DNA from: Haliotis rubra | Lineage: Eukaryota | DNA length: 64,000 nt | Assembly: GCF_003918875.1 (NCBI RefSeq) | Contig: NW_025764967.1 | Span: 248,001-312,000 of the forward strand | Direction of reading: 5' to 3' | Part shown: one piece after another, positions 14,115 to 27,600 of the stretch | Position numbering within the stretch: the stretch's first letter is position 1 | Layout of the letters: the number at the start of each line of letters is the position of its first letter | Notes under the pieces: model-generated | Databases searched by the model: none | What the model was told of the DNA's origin: nothing | What the model saw: only the letters and a program-made list of their open reading frames with translations | Translations under genes and position numbers: made by a program

Positions 14115-14975
14115 ATGGCAGCCGATTCTAATAATCTAGTTACAAGCTCACAGCTTCACAACTACTTCTTCTGCTTCTGATTGGAGATAGATATTTATCA
14201 ATACAGAAGGAACCAGGCACCAAAAAGAAGAAGAAAACAGAAACAGTTTTGGGTACGTGCGTGGTTGAGGTTGGAAAGACGATTGCAATTTTGAAACTAT
14301 GACAATCTCCTATTTGAACTCAGATTCGAAGACATGTCTACGTCTTCTTTCTTCAACTATCTCCGAATGCCTCCTGATATGTTTGATGAACTGCTTTATT
14401 CCCTGTCTCTCAGACTTACCAAAAAAGAACAAACTGCAGGAAAGCTCTGAACCCTGATCTGAAGTTGGCAGTTACCATAAGCCACCTAGCCTCTGGAGAC
14501 AAGTACCCCTCCCTCTCCTACCAGTGTGAAATCACACCACAGCCATCTGATCTTTCTCACAGAGGTATGCCAAGCCATCGTAGACCACTACAAGGATACA
14601 GTGATTGCATGTCCTGCCACTCAAGGGGATTGGAAGACCATCAGTCTGGAATTCGAGCAGAGAAGGAATCTTCCTCATGTTGGCACCCTCGATGGAAAAC
14701 ACATCGTAAACCACCTGGTAGTGAATGCCTCTACCACAAGTACAAGGGTTTCTTCTCCATTGTCCTGTTCGCTCTAATTACAGATTTCAATGGGTGGACG
14801 TCGGAGGCCTGGGTCATATGGCAGATACACAAATCTTCAATGCCTCAGAGTTGAAGGAGTCTATAGAATATGGCAGCATATGCTTGCCCGAACCTGAACC
14901 ATTGCCAAATGATGATCTGCATATGCCTTACTTCATACTTGCAGATGACTTGCATTTGCCCTTCGTCAATATCTA
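14115..14975 (+). mobile_element. PIF/Harbinger (HARBI1-like DDE) transposase relic
   Basis: WVRAWL, FFNYLRMPPDMFDELL, KLAVTISHLASGD, GTLDGKHI, YKGFFSIVL, WVDVGG..D.QIF, PYFILADD; several frameshifts. Confidence 0.88.
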
Positions 14976-15124
14976 ATGAAACCCTACTCGTGCTGATGTG
15001 TGGCTTTGACAGCTCTGCTTTGTTCCATGTTGGGGATGTGTCGGGAGTTAATCGTGGTTGATCGGGTGTGAAGCGTGGCATTACGGGGATGACACGTGGC
15101 CGTCTCTGCCTCTCAATGAAAACG

Positions 15125-15610
15125 GGCAAGTTCCTATCAGCAAACGCACAATTCAGTATCAATTACATTCACATGGCTTCAAACGGCGGGTTTCAAAGAA
15201 GAAAGTTGTGGTTAGAGAGATCAATCGTAAAAACCGAGTTGCGTGGTGTCGTGAAAAGAGAAGGTGGACAGTGAATGAACAGTGGAAAAAAAGTTATATT
15301 TTCTGATGAAAGTCAAATTGTTATTGGGCAGGATAAGTGTGTATACGTGTCGAGGCAGACCGGCGAGGGATGGCCGCCCGATTTAGTGTGTCCAGAAACC
15401 AACAGAAAATATCAGGTTATGGTGTGGGGTTGTATTTGTTGGAATGGTGTGGGGACACTAACGGCTGTAGATGGTCATATAAATGCCAACAAGTAGGTAG
15501 GCATCCTAGAAAATAATTTATGGCCGGTTATTGCAAGATATTTCCCAAACGATGGGTATTTATTCCAAGATGACAATGCCCCAGTGCATCGTGCGCGGGT
15601 CATCAATGAA
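15125..15610 (+). mobile_element. Tc1-like transposase fragment
   Basis: WKKVIFSDES, VMVWGCI, LFQDDNAPVHRAR. Confidence 0.88.
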
Positions 15611-15619
15611 AACAATGAA

Positions 15620-17302
15620 AGGCACACACCCTTGAAGTTTGTAGGAGCAGGACAACCTTCTCAGTAAGGGCCCTCACAGTACCAGAGTGCCCACAGAAGG
15701 GGTACAGGGACTCTTGGGACGGCTCCCTGACTGCCCTGAAAGCCGCTCAAGATGAAGACAGCTATCTCTGACACCTGCGTAGATGGGTGGATGGGGGTGA
15801 AGTACCATCAGACTCAGAACTTTATCTGTCTAGGAAGGCCGCTAAGTCCTATCGGGTGGATAGAGAGCTATTCAAAAGAAACGAGGTCGGAGTACTGGTG
15901 AGGAAAGAGATTCCGGCGGTGAATAAACCTGAAAAACTGCTGATCCCCAAGACCCTACAGCGAATGGTGCTATATCAGATGCATGACATCCCATCGAGCG
16001 GACACCTGGGAGTTACTAAGACTAAGGAGAGGATAAAGGAGAGGTACCATTGGTACCAGTGCGGGCAAGACACCAGGGACTACGTGGCCGAGTGCTCAGC
16101 ATGCAACCGGAACAACAAACCATCACGGCAGGCCCGGTCGAGGATGACTCCCTTCCATGCGGGGGCCCAATGAAGAGGGTGCACCTGGACTTTATTGGTC
16201 CCTTGCCCACGAGCAAAGCAGGGAACCAGTACATTCTCATGATGGTAGACCAATTCACCAAAATGGGTGGAGTGCGTGCCTCTCCCGCGCCAAAAAGCAG
16301 AAGTGACAGCAAGGGCAGCGGTTAACGAATTCTTTGCCTGGTTTGGGTTCCCACTCCAAATCCATACGGACCAGGGCAGGAACTTTGGGAGTCGGCTGTT
16401 CAATGAAATCTGCCAGCTGTTGCAGGTAACAAAGACCAGGACGACACCCTACCGTCCTTCCTCGAATGGACAGGTGGAGAGATTCAACCGGACACTGATG
16501 CAGATGATCCGCTGTTATATGTCCAAGTCTCAAACCACGTTGGATGAATACATGCCCCAGCTGGCGGGGGCTATGAGGTCCGCGGGGAACCGCCATACTG
16601 GCTAGACGGCCAACCATCTGATGCTGGGCCAGGAAGTAAATGTTCCGGCGGATCTGATGTTCGGGGACCGGAAACTTCCCGCAAGAGAGTGACACCAGTG
16701 CATACGTTGCTGGGCTGCGAATAGCTATGGAGAGTGCTCATGCAGCGGCTCGGAGTAATTTGCAGACCTCGGTGGAAAGGATGAAGAGACATTACGATTT
16801 ACACACTCGATCCCAAAGTTTGGACCAAGGACAACCTGTGTATGTGTTAGACTTAGGGGCAACCCCAGGACGGTGCAAAAAACTGTGCCCTGTGTGGAAG
16901 GGGCCTTACCTCATTGGGAAAAGGCTGTCTCCTACCCTGTTTGTGGTGGCAGGGCAGCGGAGAACGTTCATGGCCCACCATGACAGGATGAAGTTGTGCC
17001 AGGATCGGGTTGTGCCTCGCTGGATGGAGAGAAGGAAGAAACGCGAGGAGGTCCCCGCTCTAGAGGGGGAGAGGGATCTCATTACAAAGGCAGAGGACGG
17101 GGAGGAAACAGGGTCCGTCTACTGCCACTGCTGCCAGCCGGATGACGGGGGTTTTATGATTGCCTGTGATGGCTGCGATGGGTGGTTCCATGGACCCTGT
17201 GTGGGGTTGACAGAGACCATGGCTAAGGCCATGGATGAATACCACTGTCCCACCTGTGGATCAGGAGCAGTGGGGCCCTTGGGAGGTGCAGAGGCATTTT
17301 GA
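15620..17302 (+). mobile_element. Gypsy LTR retrotransposon pol 3' part: integrase (HHCC, DDE core, GPY/F) fused to C-terminal PHD finger; 5' truncated, frameshifted
   Basis: HDIPSSGHLG...CSAC; RVHLDFIGP, VDQFTK, IHTDQGRNF, TTPYRPSSNGQVERFNRTL; WKGPY; YCHC...MIACDGCDGWFHGPCVG...YHCPTC (17120-17257). Confidence 0.92.
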
Positions 17303-17411
17303 TCTTTGGGGGCGGCTAGAGGTGTAGGATAGTACAGGCGTGGGATGAGGGAAGTAGAGGTTGGTGGGTACTGTTTACTCCATCGGTTCGGCGATGGAGT
17401 TGACAGTAGTT

Positions 17412-17437
17412 CTGACAAATGGTCTTCTTGTTTGCAG
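17412..17437 (+). promoter_or_regulatory. Putative splice acceptor upstream of the second Gypsy ORF
   Basis: CTGAC branch-like motif (17412-17416), pyrimidine tract tcttcttgttt, GCAG|G at 17437. Confidence 0.5.
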
Positions 17438-19374
17438 GAATCCGCAAAATACTCATCCTTGAGGAGAAATGGAGAGAAAGAATCAAGCTGAGAAGGAGGG
17501 GGTTTGGAGAGAGAGATCCAACCCCGGAGCAGCCATTAGGCAGTGCTTGGTGGAGGAAAGGAAGGTGACGGTGCGCCCAGGTGAGACCCGGGTGACGGTG
17601 TGCCAAGAGCACACAGAGAAGACTAGGGTGGAGGAGAGAACAGAAGAGACCAGGGTGATGGAGCACCCAGAAGCGATCCCGGGTGATGAGGCGCCAGGAG
17701 GAGAAACGCTGGGTAGTGCGTCCAGAGCATCCAAGTCGTCGACAGACGCAGGAGCACTGCAGCGTCACGAAGATAAGAGGAGTTCGAGGTGGAGGGTTCA
17801 AGAGTAAACGACCCACCGTGGATGGGTATGCCTGGGGCTGGGAGCAGTTGTCGTCAGACGCTGAATCCCAGCTGAACCGTCGGCCAGTCCATGGTCACAG
17901 GGTCACAAGGGGGAAGTCTATGTCCCGACAGACAGGGATCATGCTTTCCTGGCACATCTTCCACCCTACTTTGGGGCAAGATACCCCCAGGGGAATTCCA
18001 CCGACAAGGAAGTCCTCGAGAAGGTGGTCCAGGGACTACGTCAGCTGGGGACGTGGATCCTGGGGCCTGGGGCCACCCGGGAAGATCTTTCCCTCTTGTT
18101 TAACAGAAAAGTGAGGCTATCTCGGGATTGCACGATTCACGAGAGCTCAGTCGCGGGGATGCAGCGTTTGTGTCGGACCCAGGGATGGCAGATGCCGGTG
18201 AAGTTTGCTTTGCAGCCACTTAACTCCCGCGGCCTGCTTGAAGCAGTGGAGGGTGCTGCTGCACCTCTTGAATTTTGTAGCCCCAGACTGACAAAGGGAG
18301 TTCCGTCTCTTTCTGGTGGCAGTGCCGTCCCACCCTCACTGGACTGCCTGAAGCCAGGCCCCTCAAGAATGGGACCAAGACCTCCTAGAGGTGGGTGCTC
18401 CGGAAGCCATGTGGTTGCCCGAAGATCGGGAGCTCCCTCAAGAAGGAAAGGAGCCGGATACAGAGCCAGATACAGACCTGGGGACTGCCATGGATCAGAG
18501 AGCCGTCATGGGGACAGAGTGGTGGCCAGCAAAACAAGAGGGCGCCCCTGGGGGAGAGGAATCGGCAGAGGGGTAGGATGGGATCCCCTAGGAGCCGATC
18601 CAACTGGACCATCTGTTTGATGCCCATTTTCATCTGGACCGAACGTGGGCGGCCACGTTCGCCCGTACACCGGCATGTCCCGAAGTCAACCACCCCTTGG
18701 GACAAGTGCCAGTGTGGGGGGTGGAAGTACACTGCGATCCTCCCACCTATCCTAGCCGGGTCAGCACCGACCCAGCTCACCCCAAGAAAGCCTCTTGCCT
18801 TGATGACAAGGTCTTCAGACGACTGCTGGGGTTGTGGGGGGATGCCAGGTGTTTTGATTGGGGAGATCGGCCTGGATCGTTCCGTCCCAGCCTGGGAATG
18901 GAGGAAGCGAGAGCTCGTATTAAAGGAGTTGTTACCACATGTTCCCGCGGGGAGGGCTGTGATAGTCCACGTCAGGGAGCCCGCAGACGATGTGGAGGCC
19001 AGTGCAACCCATGCTCGCCTTGTCCAAATACTGAGAGGGTTCCTGCCTCAGGACCAGCCCATAGATGTACATTGCTTCTCCGGTGGGGAGGAGGTTGTGG
19101 AGGAGTGGTTGAGGGCGTTCCCGGGGTTATACTTCGGGTTCACTGGGCGAGTTAGGGATTTAACCCAGAACAAGTGGCGGGGTTGAAAGTGGTACACAGG
19201 GACCGGATACTGCTGGAAACCGACTCCCCTTATATGCCACCCGAGGGATACAGGGTGAACTCCCCGGCATTGTTGTGCTTGGTGGCCGACCTGGTGGCGG
19301 AGGTCAGAGGGGTCACCACGGAGGAGCTGCTCTCGTCCACTAATGAGAATGCAGTTCAGCTGTTTTCCCGGTAG
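17438..19374 (+). pseudogene. Gypsy-borne extra ORF: charged low-complexity N-terminal region plus C-terminal TatD-family nuclease domain (18619-19374); frameshifted
   Basis: DAHFHLD, HPKK, IGEIGLD, IVHVRE, HCFSGG, YFGFTG, ILLETDSPY, final helix TNENAVQLF; GC/purine composition continuous with the integrase region. Confidence 0.88.
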
Positions 19375-19446
19375 AAGGGCCACGACACCGCTCCTCGACA
19401 GAGGGGAGTCGGCACAGACATTGGCAGAAGACGGTGGGTTCTGCCT

Positions 19447-19965
19447 AAGAGAAAGGCGGAATGGGAACCTCGAGTGAGGGGACTGGATGGTTCCACCTCA
19501 AGGAGGACTGGGTGCCTCATCTCATAGGAAGATGGAAATTGGAAAATGAAGTGCAAGGGTCTGACCCACCCGAGGCGCGGGTGGAAATTAAATCTGGCGA
19601 GCAGGGAATTGTTGGCTCCTATGAACTGTGTGATGCGGGGTCTGACCCTTGGATTTGGGGGATAGAAAGTGATTCCCCCAAGTGGACATTCATAAAGAAA
19701 CCCCTCAATGAAGAATCCTACAAGAGGGGTATGATGGCGTTCATTCCGCAGGAAGGAGCCTATAAAACAGGGAGGGATGTGGTGATCGGAGCTATCAACC
19801 GGAAGTTGGAGGACTAGACGGAAAGTGCCGGAGACTGCCGATCGCCACAGCGAGTTCGTGGAAGCCATCTTGTAAGAATACACACTGCCTTACCTAGGGT
19901 CTACCTAAAACCGTGGGTTGGGGCATATTTACTGCAAGGTGGGAGCCGCGACTAACTCCATTAGT
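19447..19965 (+). mobile_element. Probable polypurine tract and 3' LTR of the Gypsy element (right end uncertain)
   Basis: AAGAGAAAGGCGGAA (19447-19461) then TG; TATAAAA at 19761; no second LTR in window to confirm. Confidence 0.45.
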
Positions 19966-20004
19966 GGTCAACATCGTAGTGGACCTGGTGATCACTACAC
20001 ATTG

Positions 20005-21677: not shown

Positions 21678-24600
21678 CTGAAATGGTATTAATTTCACAT
21701 TAATTATATGGTTGGCACCAGAAAACAGGTAAGACACAGTATTCAAATGTGAAGCATTCAAATATACATTTATTACTGGTACATACTGCATCCTGTTTGA
21801 CAATCTTTGACACAAAACTTACTGTTCAGACTTGGTTGAGGTCCATGCATGGTGATGGATGTTTCTGTCGGGTTCCCAGCCTTGTCCAGCACGTGCATGG
21901 CGCTGATGTTGTAGGTTGTCAGGTCGCTGAGCTTCAGGCCACACAGCTGGGCGGATGTGTATGTGAATATACTGGGGACGCTCTGCTGGTACAGCAAACT
22001 GCTACCCTCGATGCGAACCTATATTTTTTCATCAACAAACAAACAGGTATGAATGTAAGATATACGTGTATGGATGGAAGTTTCCAGAACTGTAAGCGCC
22101 AGCTTCATTAGTTGTACTGATAAAAGGGCACCTGTCTATGTAGTAGATGTCAGCTGGAGGAGACCTACCAGGGTGGTGTGAGGGGTCTCGGTTTCTCCTC
22201 CCTCCCACTGAAGTCTCACAGTGTCTCGGGCTACGTGACACTGGTGTCTGTCTGAGAACACGGAGGGGCTCTCCTCCAGAACCTTGAAGCCAGCAACAGA
22301 TGCCATGTCCTCACCGGACACGAGAACTACGCCATCAGATGAAGACTCGGAGACCTGCCCGACCTTGTTATAGCAACGTACTGTCGTGTACACCTTCACA
22401 CTGGATGAGATCACAAGATCAGTCAGATTCCACCTGATATATCGTACTCCATGGTTAGTTCTAGCAAACCGACGGACATCGTCATCTCCTGGGGTGTGTC
22501 CTGCAGAGGAAAGGACAGCTATTCACACAGAAGATGGATACAGTACCCTTAGGACACACAAAGAAATGATAAAACAAACACAAAGCACGCAGTTTCTAAA
22601 TACTTGTATGATTTCAATGATTAATGTATTTATAACTTGGGATTAGTTTTCATTTTAACAACACACACATAGTATCACCCACAGTTGTCTCACTGTTCCC
22701 TACCTATAGCGACGTCACAGCTGATGGAATCTGACTCTTCATCTTCCACAGCCCAGTTGGCTGCCATGTCCCCTGGTGATAGGAAATCTGTATCCACACC
22801 TAGAAACGGAGCATTATGCCTGTATCATCATCATACAGCAATGGTGGCAAGATCATACTTATGTGGTGTTGACCAAATCATTATATCGCATTATATCACT
22901 ACTGCATAAGGCCAAGCTGAGACATAAATGTATTTGGGGACAGCAACCACTGCCATTGTCAGAAACGTTTTATCTGTATATATTTCTTATGCTCTATATT
23001 TAATGGAACTGGTTCGATGTTTATGCTGGAGGACTGAAGACCCCGAGTTTCATCACAACTCAGTAGCATTAATCTATGTCAACTTGAAAGGACACCTTTG
23101 GTCAGAGTCCTTAATATCAATGTGTTGTAAGAAACATTTCACTTTTTAACAGCGGAATCTCTGGTACTGTTGTGTGGTGTTGGACTATTTGAGGAGAGTC
23201 AACTCTGGGTATTCTTTGCACGGACGTTGTAGATTTACCTGAACCATCGTTGACTTCTTGTATTGTTGGTGGTGTCATGTCCACCGTCAGGGGGTCTGCT
23301 CTGGTCAGTGATGTCAGGCCGGCAGCGTTAGTGGCGAGTACCGACACATACAGTCTGGAGTTGTGCGTCAGTTTCTTGGCAGAAAGTGTTCCTTGAGGGT
23401 TGCTACCAACGTTCGTGAAGCCTTGTAACTGTGTACCGCCTTCCACAAGACCTGCATGAAGAAGTGATTTCAACACATAGTCTCTTTAAGCTGCTTAGGT
23501 CAATAGTTTTGGTTCCGTATCACGTTCAAGTCTAAGAAATTATATAGTTTAAATTATTATTTTTTTAAATTCATTACCATATCTCACCTAAAGAACGTTA
23601 GACCATTCGATAATCATTTTCTGTGTTCTACTGAAGATCGCCGGTTAAACAGTCACCAGAAAGAAGCTTGCTTGTAACCACCCACGATTTACATTCCTAA
23701 TGTGAGTCCATTCAGCGCTGATGGGTTCGAAATAGACAATAGCCTGATATGATACTTGCCTTATAACAATACGGGCGTCCAGAGTTACATTTATCACCTG
23801 CGTCGTGTTTTTCTCTCTCAGACAACGCGGATCCGCCGTGGTGTAAACCGTCAAAATCAGTCGCTATCAAGAGTATCCCAACTCTCGCCTAGTATACCGA
23901 CAACCAGCTGGTAACATTGCAATCGGGACCTTGAATATCCACTTGTGCAGAAAAAGAGACTCACCTCCTGCCCACTGGTACAAGGTGATGGGAGACTCAT
24001 CTACAGCCCACTGGAACATGGTGATGGGAGACTCACCTACTGCCCACTGGTACATGGAGATGGGAGACTCACCTACTGCCCACTGGTACATGGTGATGGG
24101 AGACTCACCTACAGCCCACTGGAACATGGTGATGGGAGACTCACCTACAGCCCACTGGTACATGGTGATGGGAGACTCACCTACAGCCCACTGGTACATG
24201 GTGATGGGGGACTCACCTACAGCCCACTGGGACATGGTGATGGGGGACTCACCTACTACCCACTGGGACATGGTGATGGGAGACTCACCTACTGCCCACT
24301 GGGACATGGTGATGGGAGACTCACCTACTGCCCACTGGGACATGGTGATTGGAGACTCACCTACTGCCCACTGGAACATGGTGATGGGGGACTCACCTAC
24401 TACCCACTGGTACATGGTGATGGGAGACTCACCTACTGCCCACTGGGACATGGTGATGGGAGACTCACCTCCTGCCCACTGGAACATGGTGATTGGGGAC
24501 TCACCTACTACCCACTGGTACATGGTGATGGGAGACTCACCTACAGCCCACTGGTACATGGTGATGGGGGACTCACCTACTGCCCACTGGAACATGGTGA

Positions 24601-27600
24601 TGGGGGACTCACCTACTGCCCACTGGAACATGGTGATGGGAGACTCACCCACTGCCCACTGGTACATGGTGATGGGCGACTCGCTGTCCGTGAAGTGCCA
24701 GGACACATGCAGGGACGACCAGTCAGGCAGGAACACGGCGTTCACCTCAACGTGCTTCTCTGTGTCCACAGTGCCGTCATGTCCACTATAGGTGATGCTC
24801 TGAAGTGTCACGTGATCAACCGCCATCACCATGGATCTTGACTTTGTGCCAATAGTAAGTTGTGCTGATTCCTCCCGAGCTATGAAGGAAAGTGTGTGTG
24901 TATTCCACATGATAACAGAATGTCTACCCACATCACACACCCCTCGGCACAGATTGGGCTCAAGACTGAATGTGATGACTTCAGCGCCAACTGACACGAA
25001 GCCTTCTATAGCGCTATGATGTGTGTCCGTGACCTCTGTATATCCTGCATGAATCTTCACTTTGTACATTTGTGCCACACTGAGATGTATATCTGCCTGG
25101 AGAACAGATCCGCTGACTACAACATAGCTGCTACCATGTCTGGCTAATTGACGCTCGGATGTAATGATGTGTATACACGAATAGTTGTCAGTCTGCCAGT
25201 ACTCGGGAACACGGTCATTACATGTCGATGAATTAACAGGTTTATTTTGTATCTCAAACGAGGGATTTTTCACCAGGTTGTCTCCCAAGTATGCAACGGC
25301 CTGTGGTTCTGGGGGAGACGTGTCCACGACAACACCATCCGATACAGCTACGTCTGAGGCGTGACCCACTGCATCTACAGCATACACCTTGCTCCATAAA
25401 CGTGTACCTAGAAGCAAGGGAATATCAATATCAAGAGAATCCTAAAGACTCTTTTGCGCCATCGAGAACTTCATAAGGTGTGACAACCTGCATCATTCGA
25501 CCTTTGTTAACAGACTGAACTTCCGTCACCATTGGAAAATACATGCTTTAACAAATTGCTGCTGAACAATTACTTTTGTGACATTTTGTAATTCACCGGA
25601 AGTACGGGAAGAAGGATGAGCACAACCACCAGTAGTGAGCTTCCCTGGGTAATCACTATGGAGAATCTATACTGACAGAAGAGGCGTGTTGACATCTAGG
25701 TCAGATAAACTGATCTGGACACATACCACTCTGGAGAATCTATACTGACAGAAGAGGCGTGTTGACATCTAGGTCAGATAAACTGATCTGGACACATACC
25801 ACTCTGGAGAATCTATACTGACAGAAGAGGCGTGTTGACATCTAGGTCAGATAAACTGATCTGGACACATAGCACTCTGGAGAATCTATACTGACAGAAG
25901 AGGCGTGTTGACATCGAGGTCAGATAAACTGATATGGACACATACCACTCTGGAGAGGTGAAGCAAGTTGTGCCTTGAAGGTGGTGTGAAGCCCGGTCTC
26001 CCGCCAGCCTAGCACACTGCAGTCGGTTGTGTCGTTGTGTCTTCCCACACACCAGAAGTATGTGATGATGGTGGAGTCCGTGTCGGAGAAGCCGTGCCAG
26101 GAAGCCGATACAGCGGATGGAGAACTCTGGTAGTCCGTGTCGTGCATCTCTGCCGGAATGGACCAAACAAAATCAGTGGTCAAGGAATAATCACTTCTCA
26201 CAAGGTATTGTAACCCGTGTGCTGATGCTTGTACCCCAAACATGGATTGTTATGGACGTATTCTAATGGGGTAGTTGGGCACTGTGAAGTCAAAGCTCTT
26301 CGTGTAGACATTAATCATTCCCTAAACGTTCTATCACGTTTCTAGACTTAAGACAAACAGGAGGCCCTGAAAAACATACCTTGTCCATCACTGACTGTAC
26401 CCGCAACTGGAGGCAGCACGTCCACTCGGACACCGTCAGAGTAGGCCCAGCTGACCAGGCCAGCTCTGCTGTAGGCCACGACACTGGAGAAGTACACTGT
26501 GGCTGCCTGTAAACTCAGGTTCCTTGCTGTGTAGGTCGTCGTGGTCAGGTCATCAGACGCGTGGATATTGTGTCCTGAAGAGTGAGTGAGTGAGTGAATG
26601 GGTGAGCGGGCGAGTTAGATGGTGGGTGGTTGGCTTTGGGTGGGTGGGTTTTGCCACATTATGACAGGGAGACACCAGAAAAGGGTTTCACACACTGTAC
26701 ACACAATCTTATGCACCAGGATCTTTAGAATTACCACCAGTTTGCATTGCCTTTGCGCAGAGATGTGTTTATTTGGATGCGCTAAGTACTGTAAGCCATG
26801 AATCAGGGTATGACGCATGGACACAAGCTACCAGGCTAGATACATCAAGTACCTCGACATTCACGTCATCTTATATACTGATCTGTAATATGTTGATGGA
26901 GTCGGGAAGCTGTGGACGCTCACCCCCGGGGCTTGTGCTGATGTAGACTCGGTACTTCAGAATACCAACGGCGCCCGGCAGGAACTTGTTGGTCCAGCTG
27001 ATCCTCATTGTGTCCGTCTCCTTCTGGAAGTCTACATCCTTCAGTCCATGGTCACCCCTGACCTCAATAACCTGCATCATTCACATATAGTCTACATCCT
27101 TCAGTCCATCGTCACCCCTCACCTCAATAACCTGCATCATTCACATATAGTCTACATCCTTCACTCCATGGTCACCCCTGACCTCAATTACCTGCATCAT
27201 TCACATATATCTACATCCTTCAACCCATCGTCACCGCTGAGCTCAATAACCTGCATCATTCACATATAGTCTACATCCGTCGATCCATCGTCACCCCTCA
27301 CCTTAATAAGCTGCATCATTCATATATAGTCTACATCCTTCACTCCATCGTCACCCCTCACCTCAATAACCTGCATCATTGACATATAGTCTACATCCTT
27401 CACTCCATCGTCACCCCTGACCTCGATAATCTACGTTATTCACATTCATATCTCGTGTACCATAGATAATTTGTGAATTCATGGAATACATCACCAAATA
27501 TTAACATCTTAATGGCAATAAGAACAATTATCGTTTTCTGAAATGTAAGTGGGACGCATACTTTTAATTTTCAATACCCTCTGATAAGAATGAGCTGCAT

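Follow-up and report, generated by a model that had tools for sequence, protein, structure and literature searches.

The window, the whole 64,000-nucleotide stretch of Haliotis rubra DNA analysed here, carries the decayed 3′ half of a Gypsy LTR retrotransposon in which a TatD nuclease gene follows the integrase. The features of this element are listed below by position in the window and strand, with the evidence for each in brackets.

15620-19999, +: 3′ half of a Gypsy LTR retrotransposon, decayed (blastn, 78-88% to the full element C2270)
15943-16119, +: integrase zinc-binding domain, H2C2 (PF17921, E 1.1e-18)
16170-16700, +: integrase core, rve, with frame changes and stops (PF00665, E 3.5e-10; 80% to the C2270 integrase, four stops)
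17123-17257, +: PHD finger at the integrase C-terminus (PF00628, E 1.2e-9; common to all three main TatD families)
17420-17437, +: predicted splice acceptor, a pyrimidine tract plus CAG, before ORF3 (simple AG score; alignment of families)
17469-19374, +: ORF3, broken, with a basic low-complexity N-terminus, a middle domain, a linker and TatD (six-frame translation; unbroken 798-codon stop-to-stop frame in copy C1690)
17934-18360, +: conserved middle domain of ORF3, about 140 aa, C-x4-C..H-x4-H-x-P and then helices (blastp; structure model)
18610-19371, +: TatD nuclease domain, predicted Class II (HxH), in three frames (PF01026; fold of a natural unbroken copy)
19764-19777, +: polypurine tract abutting the LTR (the same tract precedes the 3′ LTR in two-LTR copies)
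19778-19999, +: 3′ LTR, 222 bp, TG...CA (81-93% to both LTRs of C2270, C1846, C811, C2678, C177, C614, C1087 and C1780a)

The pol frame stops at 17300-17302, after the PHD finger, and the TatD motifs that a sequence-only reading had placed behind this stop are indeed found there in order (18619-19233): DAHFH at 18619-18633, HCDP at 18730, HP at 18778, GEIGLD at 18860, HVR at 18968, HCFSG at 19070 and ETDSPY at 19216. Two pieces of the window ORF match the Pfam TatD_DNase model above the cut-off (E 1.3e-8 and 7.8e-14), thus the motifs are not due to chance. Six-frame translation likewise agrees with a same-strand, intronless and frameshifted ORF: TatD is spread over three frames, three frame changes lie between the middle domain and the end (stop at 19372-19374), and more are found in the N-terminal part, together with in-frame stops. 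The proposed ORF start, 17438, is correct only as the base that follows the splice-acceptor-like AG, whereas the first ATG is at 17469; moreover, the polypurine tract and LTR had been put at 19447, and comparison with other copies moved them to the positions listed above. The same reading had overlooked the PHD finger on the integrase and the second conserved domain of ORF3, the first cysteines of which are unreadable in the window copy. A 122-codon frame at 19449-19817 was considered as a fourth gene and rejected, since relatives do not keep it open.

Homology to full elements starts at 15620, adjoining DNA-transposon fragments, while a 5′ LTR, gag, protease, RT and RNase H were found neither in the window nor in the 10 kb left of it. 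The fragments that abut the truncated 5′ end (14300-15620) comprise a Harbinger-like DDE_Tnp_4 (weak, E 0.025) and a Tc1/mariner HTH_Tnp_Tc3_2 (E 1e-10). The nearest copy to the window element is C1846 (blastn, 92% over 18293-19999). Given the stops, the frame changes and an integrase dN/dS of 0.24-0.40 against family members, the window copy is a decayed, dead 3′ fragment. Elsewhere in the window, a host gene exon (23867-25441, minus strand) is read through a 36-bp coding tandem repeat in 19 registers, and many further minisatellites are present.

Genome searches with DNA (22 matches) and with the Pfam model (52 matches), both of which are lower bounds, gave 45 TatD loci, all of which were retrieved, 22 loci being read over 10 kb only. 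At least 43 of the 45 are intronless, and two (C1224 and C2481) consist of exon-sized pieces with splice edges, the intron-bearing G000:C1224 being the host TATDN2 gene. Upstream of the 43 intronless loci, an integrase on the same strand was found in 20, gag, RT, RH or PHD in 11, DNA parts only in 10 and no element part in two; after discounting C2410 and C1336, whose matches are short or probably other repeats, 39 of the 43 are tied to element parts. The expectation that TatD would be linked to an integrase in many copies is borne out by the 20 loci, with the 11 that follow other gag or pol parts in addition, and many of the loci are enclosed by two LTRs.

Full elements are 10.3-11.9 kb long (about 11.5 kb) and are arranged as LTR-PBS(Ser)-gag-pol(PR-RT-RH-IN-PHD)-ORF3-PPT-LTR, with a pol of 1501 codons in C2270 and a gag with Retrotrans_gag and CCHC in C1624 and C2393. 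The primer site matches the 3′ end of tRNA-Ser(CGA/TGA) genes. Of 17 two-LTR copies, 13 are flanked by an exact 4-bp target duplication, two of these representing a single insertion seen twice. Within the main families the two LTRs of a copy share 92-100% identity, and in several cases 99.5-100%, from which it follows that the lineage moved recently. By its TG...CA LTRs, target duplication, pol order with gag upstream, PBS and PPT, the element is a Ty3/Gypsy LTR retrotransposon, the LTR pair and gag being those of relatives. Likewise, the claim that TatD lies within an LTR pair holds for relatives, with target duplications, but not for the window copy, which keeps the 3′ LTR only. An identity as a Ginger DNA transposon, suggested by the integrase plus PHD, was rejected since the relatives have RT, RH and LTRs. 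At G000:C2046:1244681-1283375 (L196), tRNA-Ser(CGA) and tRNA-Ser(TGA) genes alternate in a long tandem array with a unit of about 587 bp, which is the likely source of the primer.

The genome harbours at least four families (the C2270/C1690 type, the C602 type, the C1624 type and C2067), and many copies are internal deletions that retain ORF3 in whole or part. In neither of the two copies checked does the frame run unbroken from the first ATG behind the acceptor to the end of ORF3; many one-base indels exist between contigs and assembly, thus some of the breaks may be assembly errors. G000:C2067 (L039-L040) is a 5.2-kb element with 133-bp LTRs and gag remnants, in which no middle domain was detected. 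In addition, three non-autonomous relatives of about 6.3 kb (G000:C2616, C790 and C2608; L155, L156 and L157), with LTRs 98-100% alike, feature a degenerate RNase H that continues into a truncated TatD and, in the gag region, spectrin repeats (PF00435) that are captured host cDNA.

In a reciprocal test, 36 of 149 integrase matches (34-95% identity) were taken regardless of TatD. Around the 28 matches at ≤50% identity, neither TatD nor the middle domain was found over about 5 kb (3 kb for one stretch), and among the eight at ≥59% identity two had TatD, two had a middle-domain remnant and four had neither. In an integrase tree of 51 rows, from which C2393, C779, C48, C1780b and C2097 were dropped as short segments, all 17 TatD-bearing integrases fell within one 24-row clade (SH-aLRT 99) and none among the 27 rows outside it. 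One family inside the clade (C2609/C2664/C1602) runs from IN-PHD to the purine tract without ORF3, thus ORF3 is dispensable or was lost there. Two Gypsy elements outside the TatD clade (L186 and L191) carry Baculo_F env-like ORFs after the integrase.

Selection was measured as pairwise Nei-Gojobori dN/dS between natural copies. Most unsaturated pairs within the window's family gave a TatD dN/dS of 0.09-0.17; for the middle domain it was 0.06-0.13 in most pairs, with two at 0.26-0.28, and for the integrase of unbroken copies and for RNase H it was 0.08-0.18 and 0.07-0.26, respectively. Higher TatD values were confined to pairs with C191 or near-identical pairs (C1690-C191, 0.39; C446-C191, 0.45; C1690-C446, 1.7 on nine differences). 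TatD is therefore under purifying selection at a dN/dS of about 0.1, like the integrase, and the earlier proposal that the nuclease is kept as an accessory gene of a Gypsy lineage is supported. The architecture and selection as stated are nearly certain.

Between families, synonymous sites are saturated, and dN is 0.7-0.85 for TatD versus 0.25-0.4 for the integrase. C2270 and C1690 (L005-L006 and L029-L030) are 93-98% identical in LTR, gag and pol yet only about 70% in ORF3, and the integrase has a dS of 0.12 whereas synonymous sites of TatD are saturated; judged from these alignments, the ORF3 module has been swapped by recombination.

The ORF3 protein starts with a low-complexity, S/R/P/E-rich N-terminus, and a basic cluster is found in 72 of 98 full-length homologs, while six of the 98 have a 19-residue hydrophobic stretch at ≥1.8. 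Pfam on 43 proteins returned only TatD plus one Amidohydro_2 match. In a two-domain model, both domains are at pLDDT >90 and the variable linker is at <50. The TatD domain of a natural unbroken copy was modelled as a TIM barrel with TatD, YcfH, TATDN3 and TATDN1 as top structural matches (E around 1e-13), and YcfH is also the best sequence match among solved structures (E 6.9e-14); no TATDN2 chain was among the matches of either the sequence or the structural search. Ten active-site positions are kept in six to seven of the seven own elements. The metal site (HxH plus E, H, H, E and D), following the definition of Class II TatD in the available part of PMC10085689, is conserved: depending on the site, 6-7 of the 7 own elements and 33-37 of the 37 foreign element-type rows have the expected residue. 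The counterparts of TATDN2 E593, E705 and D707 (numbering from the accessible text of PMC10711561) are retained as well. The element TatD is thus a predicted Class II nuclease with an intact metal site.

The middle domain was matched by blastp in 55 of 125 proteins and in 76 of 78 further representatives of ≥500 aa, yet each time in none of 50 host-exon matches. Modelled alone, it reached pLDDT 94.5 and pTM 0.88, and with its conserved C, C, H and H it probably binds zinc. It has no Pfam match, no Foldseek match at E 0.001 and no usable Atlas match, and the best Z against 48,161 structure chains was 3.4; together, these searches prove neither a new fold nor an absence of relatives. It is thus a confidently modelled domain for which no solved relative was found.

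By a simple AG score, the acceptor before ORF3 ranks first of 938, 997 and 842 in C2270, C1690 and C1780b, respectively, third in C446 and second of 375 in the window piece. In all three families aligned, the ORF3 ATG has an acceptor-like site in front of it, although in the C602 and C1624 families this site is outside the top five by the same score. A single G|GTAAGT donor is present in the leader of each full element of three families. A search for spliced retrocopies found no GT..AG ends among nine deletion junctions, and four runs aligned to C1690, three of them guessed to be RNA, showed no joint at the predicted splice and cannot show expression. On these sequence signals, ORF3 is probably expressed by splicing from the leader donor to the acceptor. 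The env of env-bearing Ty3/Gypsy elements is made from a spliced subgenomic RNA.

For the origin of the gene, trees of 93 and 50 rows were built, with a prokaryote-type outgroup chosen for its similarity to the query. The element TatDs form one clade (support 97 in the 93-row tree and 98/88 in the 50-row tree), and elements plus host TATDN2 are grouped against prokaryote-type TatD (96 and 99/99, respectively), with TATDN2 itself monophyletic in only 38% of the bootstrap trees of the 50-row set. The suggested placement against host and bacterial TatD thus comes out on the side of TATDN2 against the prokaryote-type rows, in trees from which TATDN1 and TATDN3 are absent. The best identity of element TatD to TATDN2 is 28-32% (about 29% for the own host gene), at 97-113 bits versus 85-95 bits for prokaryote-type TatD. 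The cysteine of the CDP motif, which by its spacing would correspond to TATDN2 C538, was found in 7 of 7 own elements, 28 of 37 foreign element-type rows and 19 of 25 host TATDN2, versus 2 of 22 prokaryote-type rows. A tree constrained to unite six own element rows and the host gene of the same genome was rejected (p-AU 1.5e-100), partly since the own elements are spread among foreign ones. The TatD of C2067 scores 113 bits to TATDN2 versus 101 to other element TatDs and is the earliest offshoot of the element clade, with a long branch. Together, these comparisons suggest with good confidence that the element TatD was captured long ago from a TATDN2-type gene.

Named homologs at 30-41% identity were found in Pinctada, Saccostrea, Argopecten, Tegillarca, Elysia and Strongylocentrotus, with closer ones in Haliotis and further ones in Pecten, Ostrea and Lytechinus; the mollusc and sea-urchin relatives are annotated as ordinary genes. 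The best 150 matches of a 50%-identity library comprised 134 new proteins, and the middle domain is present in 103 of these. One cluster (P0011) has 26 members, and the 15 listed lie on contigs of 0.5-5.7 Mb, as expected of a dispersed repeat. Linkage to pol outside this genome is seen in one protein, P0269 of this cluster in another assembly, which reads H2C2-rve-PHD-ORF3-TatD in one frame, and in one short contig, the metagenome locus L041, which falls in the element clade and has the middle domain and TatD followed by the same kind of purine tract and a TG start. L041 is the only one of 80 metagenome loci that is element-type by motif and score, most being prokaryote-type TatD; none of six viral loci scored like the element type, and no long fusion was found among proteins of 2044-5000 aa.

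Some relatives look domesticated. G000:C2410 (L037:4862-6202, minus strand) has an unbroken 447-codon frame of middle domain plus TatD with an acceptor-like site at its 5′ end; 8 of its 10 active-site positions are changed, no DNA match to full elements was found in 20 kb, and it is likely a domesticated host gene, catalytically dead by its predicted active site. Among 143 long element-type proteins, 12 failed at least three of five motif tests, some through truncation, and by sequence P0144 (which clusters with an Ostrea record), P0194 (Lytechinus) and P0202 likewise seem to be dead. Seven element-type proteins (P0019, P0044, P0045, P0292 and P0343-P0345) are filed under Sedimenticola or Ca. 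Thiodiazotropha bins on contigs of 1-12 kb, and are likely host-animal DNA in symbiont bins. Many mollusc and sea-urchin genes annotated as 'TatD' or uncharacterised, as well as some in symbiont bins, are thus likely element genes or their domesticated offspring.

As for function, the leader donor would be spliced to the acceptor before ORF3, and ORF3 would thereby be made apart from Gag-Pol, like env. The product would be a soluble protein whose N-terminus is basic and disordered. Its middle domain, which probably binds zinc, would contact nucleic acid or a partner, and its TIM-barrel nuclease would remove the RNA strand from R-loops, either at element copies under transcription or in intermediates of reverse transcription. 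Such clearance of R-loops or hybrids would yield more full-length RNA and cDNA and less damage in germ cells; as one family in the clade lacks ORF3, the protein would be helpful rather than essential. The best explanation as a whole, namely capture of a TATDN2-type gene, expression from a spliced RNA and stripping of RNA from R-loops or hybrids, is held with moderate confidence. For the substrate itself, R-loops or RNA-DNA hybrids are proposed tentatively, at a little under an even chance, by analogy with human TATDN2 (available parts of PMC10711561 and PMC12709183). The affinity to TATDN2 favours RNA in R-loops more than DNA ends, and the minimal activity of human TATDN2 on plain RNA-DNA duplexes weakens a role inside reverse transcription. 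A G-rich skew that would favour R-loops was found only in the window's family (0.15-0.18), the skew being about 0 in C602, C2523 and C1624.

Alternatively, the same element and gene could encode an enzyme that acts on DNA, either by trimming cDNA 3′ ends or by cutting abasic sites during reverse transcription or the repair of integration gaps. TATDN1, TATDN3 and the E. coli paralogs have 3′-5′ exonuclease and AP-endonuclease activity (PMC10085689, in its accessible portion), and the YcfH match to the element TatD is in line with this, but the tree and the CDP cysteine point instead to TATDN2, which has little DNA nuclease activity, and separate expression leaves no obvious route into the particle, making a DNA-acting enzyme unlikely. 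A role in counter-defence, in which ORF3 either destroys element nucleic acids that sensors or small-RNA pathways of the host would detect or breaks down silencing RNAs of the host at the loci of the element, is consistent with the swap of ORF3 modules between subfamilies (C2270 versus C1690) and with the faster divergence of TatD than integrase between families, and a silencing role is entertained for the rotifer DEDDy ORF3 in the available part of PMC5408684. However, selection within families is purifying rather than diversifying, and the idea, which overlaps the R-loop explanation if R-loops are the trigger, is considered doubtful. That a processed pseudogene or neutral passenger of host TATDN landed beside an integrase, as the broken window copy without a 5′ LTR and the capture of host cDNA by this lineage (the spectrin repeats) might suggest, is practically refuted by the 43 loci in several families and their linkage, the integrase clade, the dN/dS, a middle domain absent from host TATDN2, and the low identity, separate clade and rejected tree. 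The gene is thus neither single-copy, nor unlinked to integrase, nor outside an LTR pair, nor a processed pseudogene, the four outcomes that would have spoken against the sequence-only reading.

More speculatively still, one can entertain a Gypsy clade of molluscs and echinoderms that is both ancient and undescribed. It would have acquired an R-loop nuclease of the TATDN2 type and joined it to a domain of possibly new fold, would use an env-like spliced RNA to make the fusion as a factor in anti-silencing or replication, and may have repeatedly seeded catalytically dead host genes. As the host member of the source family guards germ cells against R-loops, self-management of R-loops by a retrotransposon becomes testable. 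Accessory enzymes in animal LTR retrotransposons are rare, none having a known job, and the TatD one is old, conserved and diverse.

A Gypsy element with a TatD ORF3 is real and, in the literature searched, new. The view that TatD is not a described cargo of LTR retrotransposons agrees with a literature search in which no paper linking TatD to an LTR element was found; Repbase, Dfam, GyDB, most subscription journals and bioRxiv supplements were outside this search, thus an entry for a TatD element may exist in the repeat databases. The available part of PMC6962438 lists a TATDN2-like gene near transposon-derived genes, and PMC13434339 concerns a TatD in anti-phage defence. The lineage may be one of the RT-defined mollusc Gypsy clades Mag A/B/C, CsRN1 and MolGy1-16 (PMC6238403); a term search of that paper found no occurrence of TatD, PHD or an additional ORF; a term search of PMC6338049 found no TatD.

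With env-bearing Ty3/Gypsy elements (errantiviruses; PMC13524379), the element shares a third ORF between pol and the 3′ LTR and predicted subgenomic splicing, yet ORF3 is not of a fusion-protein family, and a hydrophobic 19-mer is present in six of 98 full-length proteins; a term search of that paper and its seven supplements found no TatD. With animal TATDN2 (Class II TatD), it shares HxH, the E/E/D metal site, two active-site cysteines and a long disordered N-terminus before a C-terminal TatD, but the element gene is intronless, multi-copy, about 30% identical and equipped with a middle domain of its own, whereas the host gene at G000:C1224 has introns. The closest precedent is the DEDDy ORF3 of Juno and Vesta, LTR elements of bdelloid rotifers (PMC5408684; the accessible portion makes no mention of TatD), in which a nuclease-type ORF3 with intact catalytic residues likewise replaces env after pol. 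There, by the same portion of the paper, ORF3 is a DEDDy 3′-5′ exonuclease with no significant departure from neutrality, whereas the element described here encodes an unrelated TatD TIM barrel under clear purifying selection, bears an extra conserved domain and is spread over molluscs and probably echinoderms.
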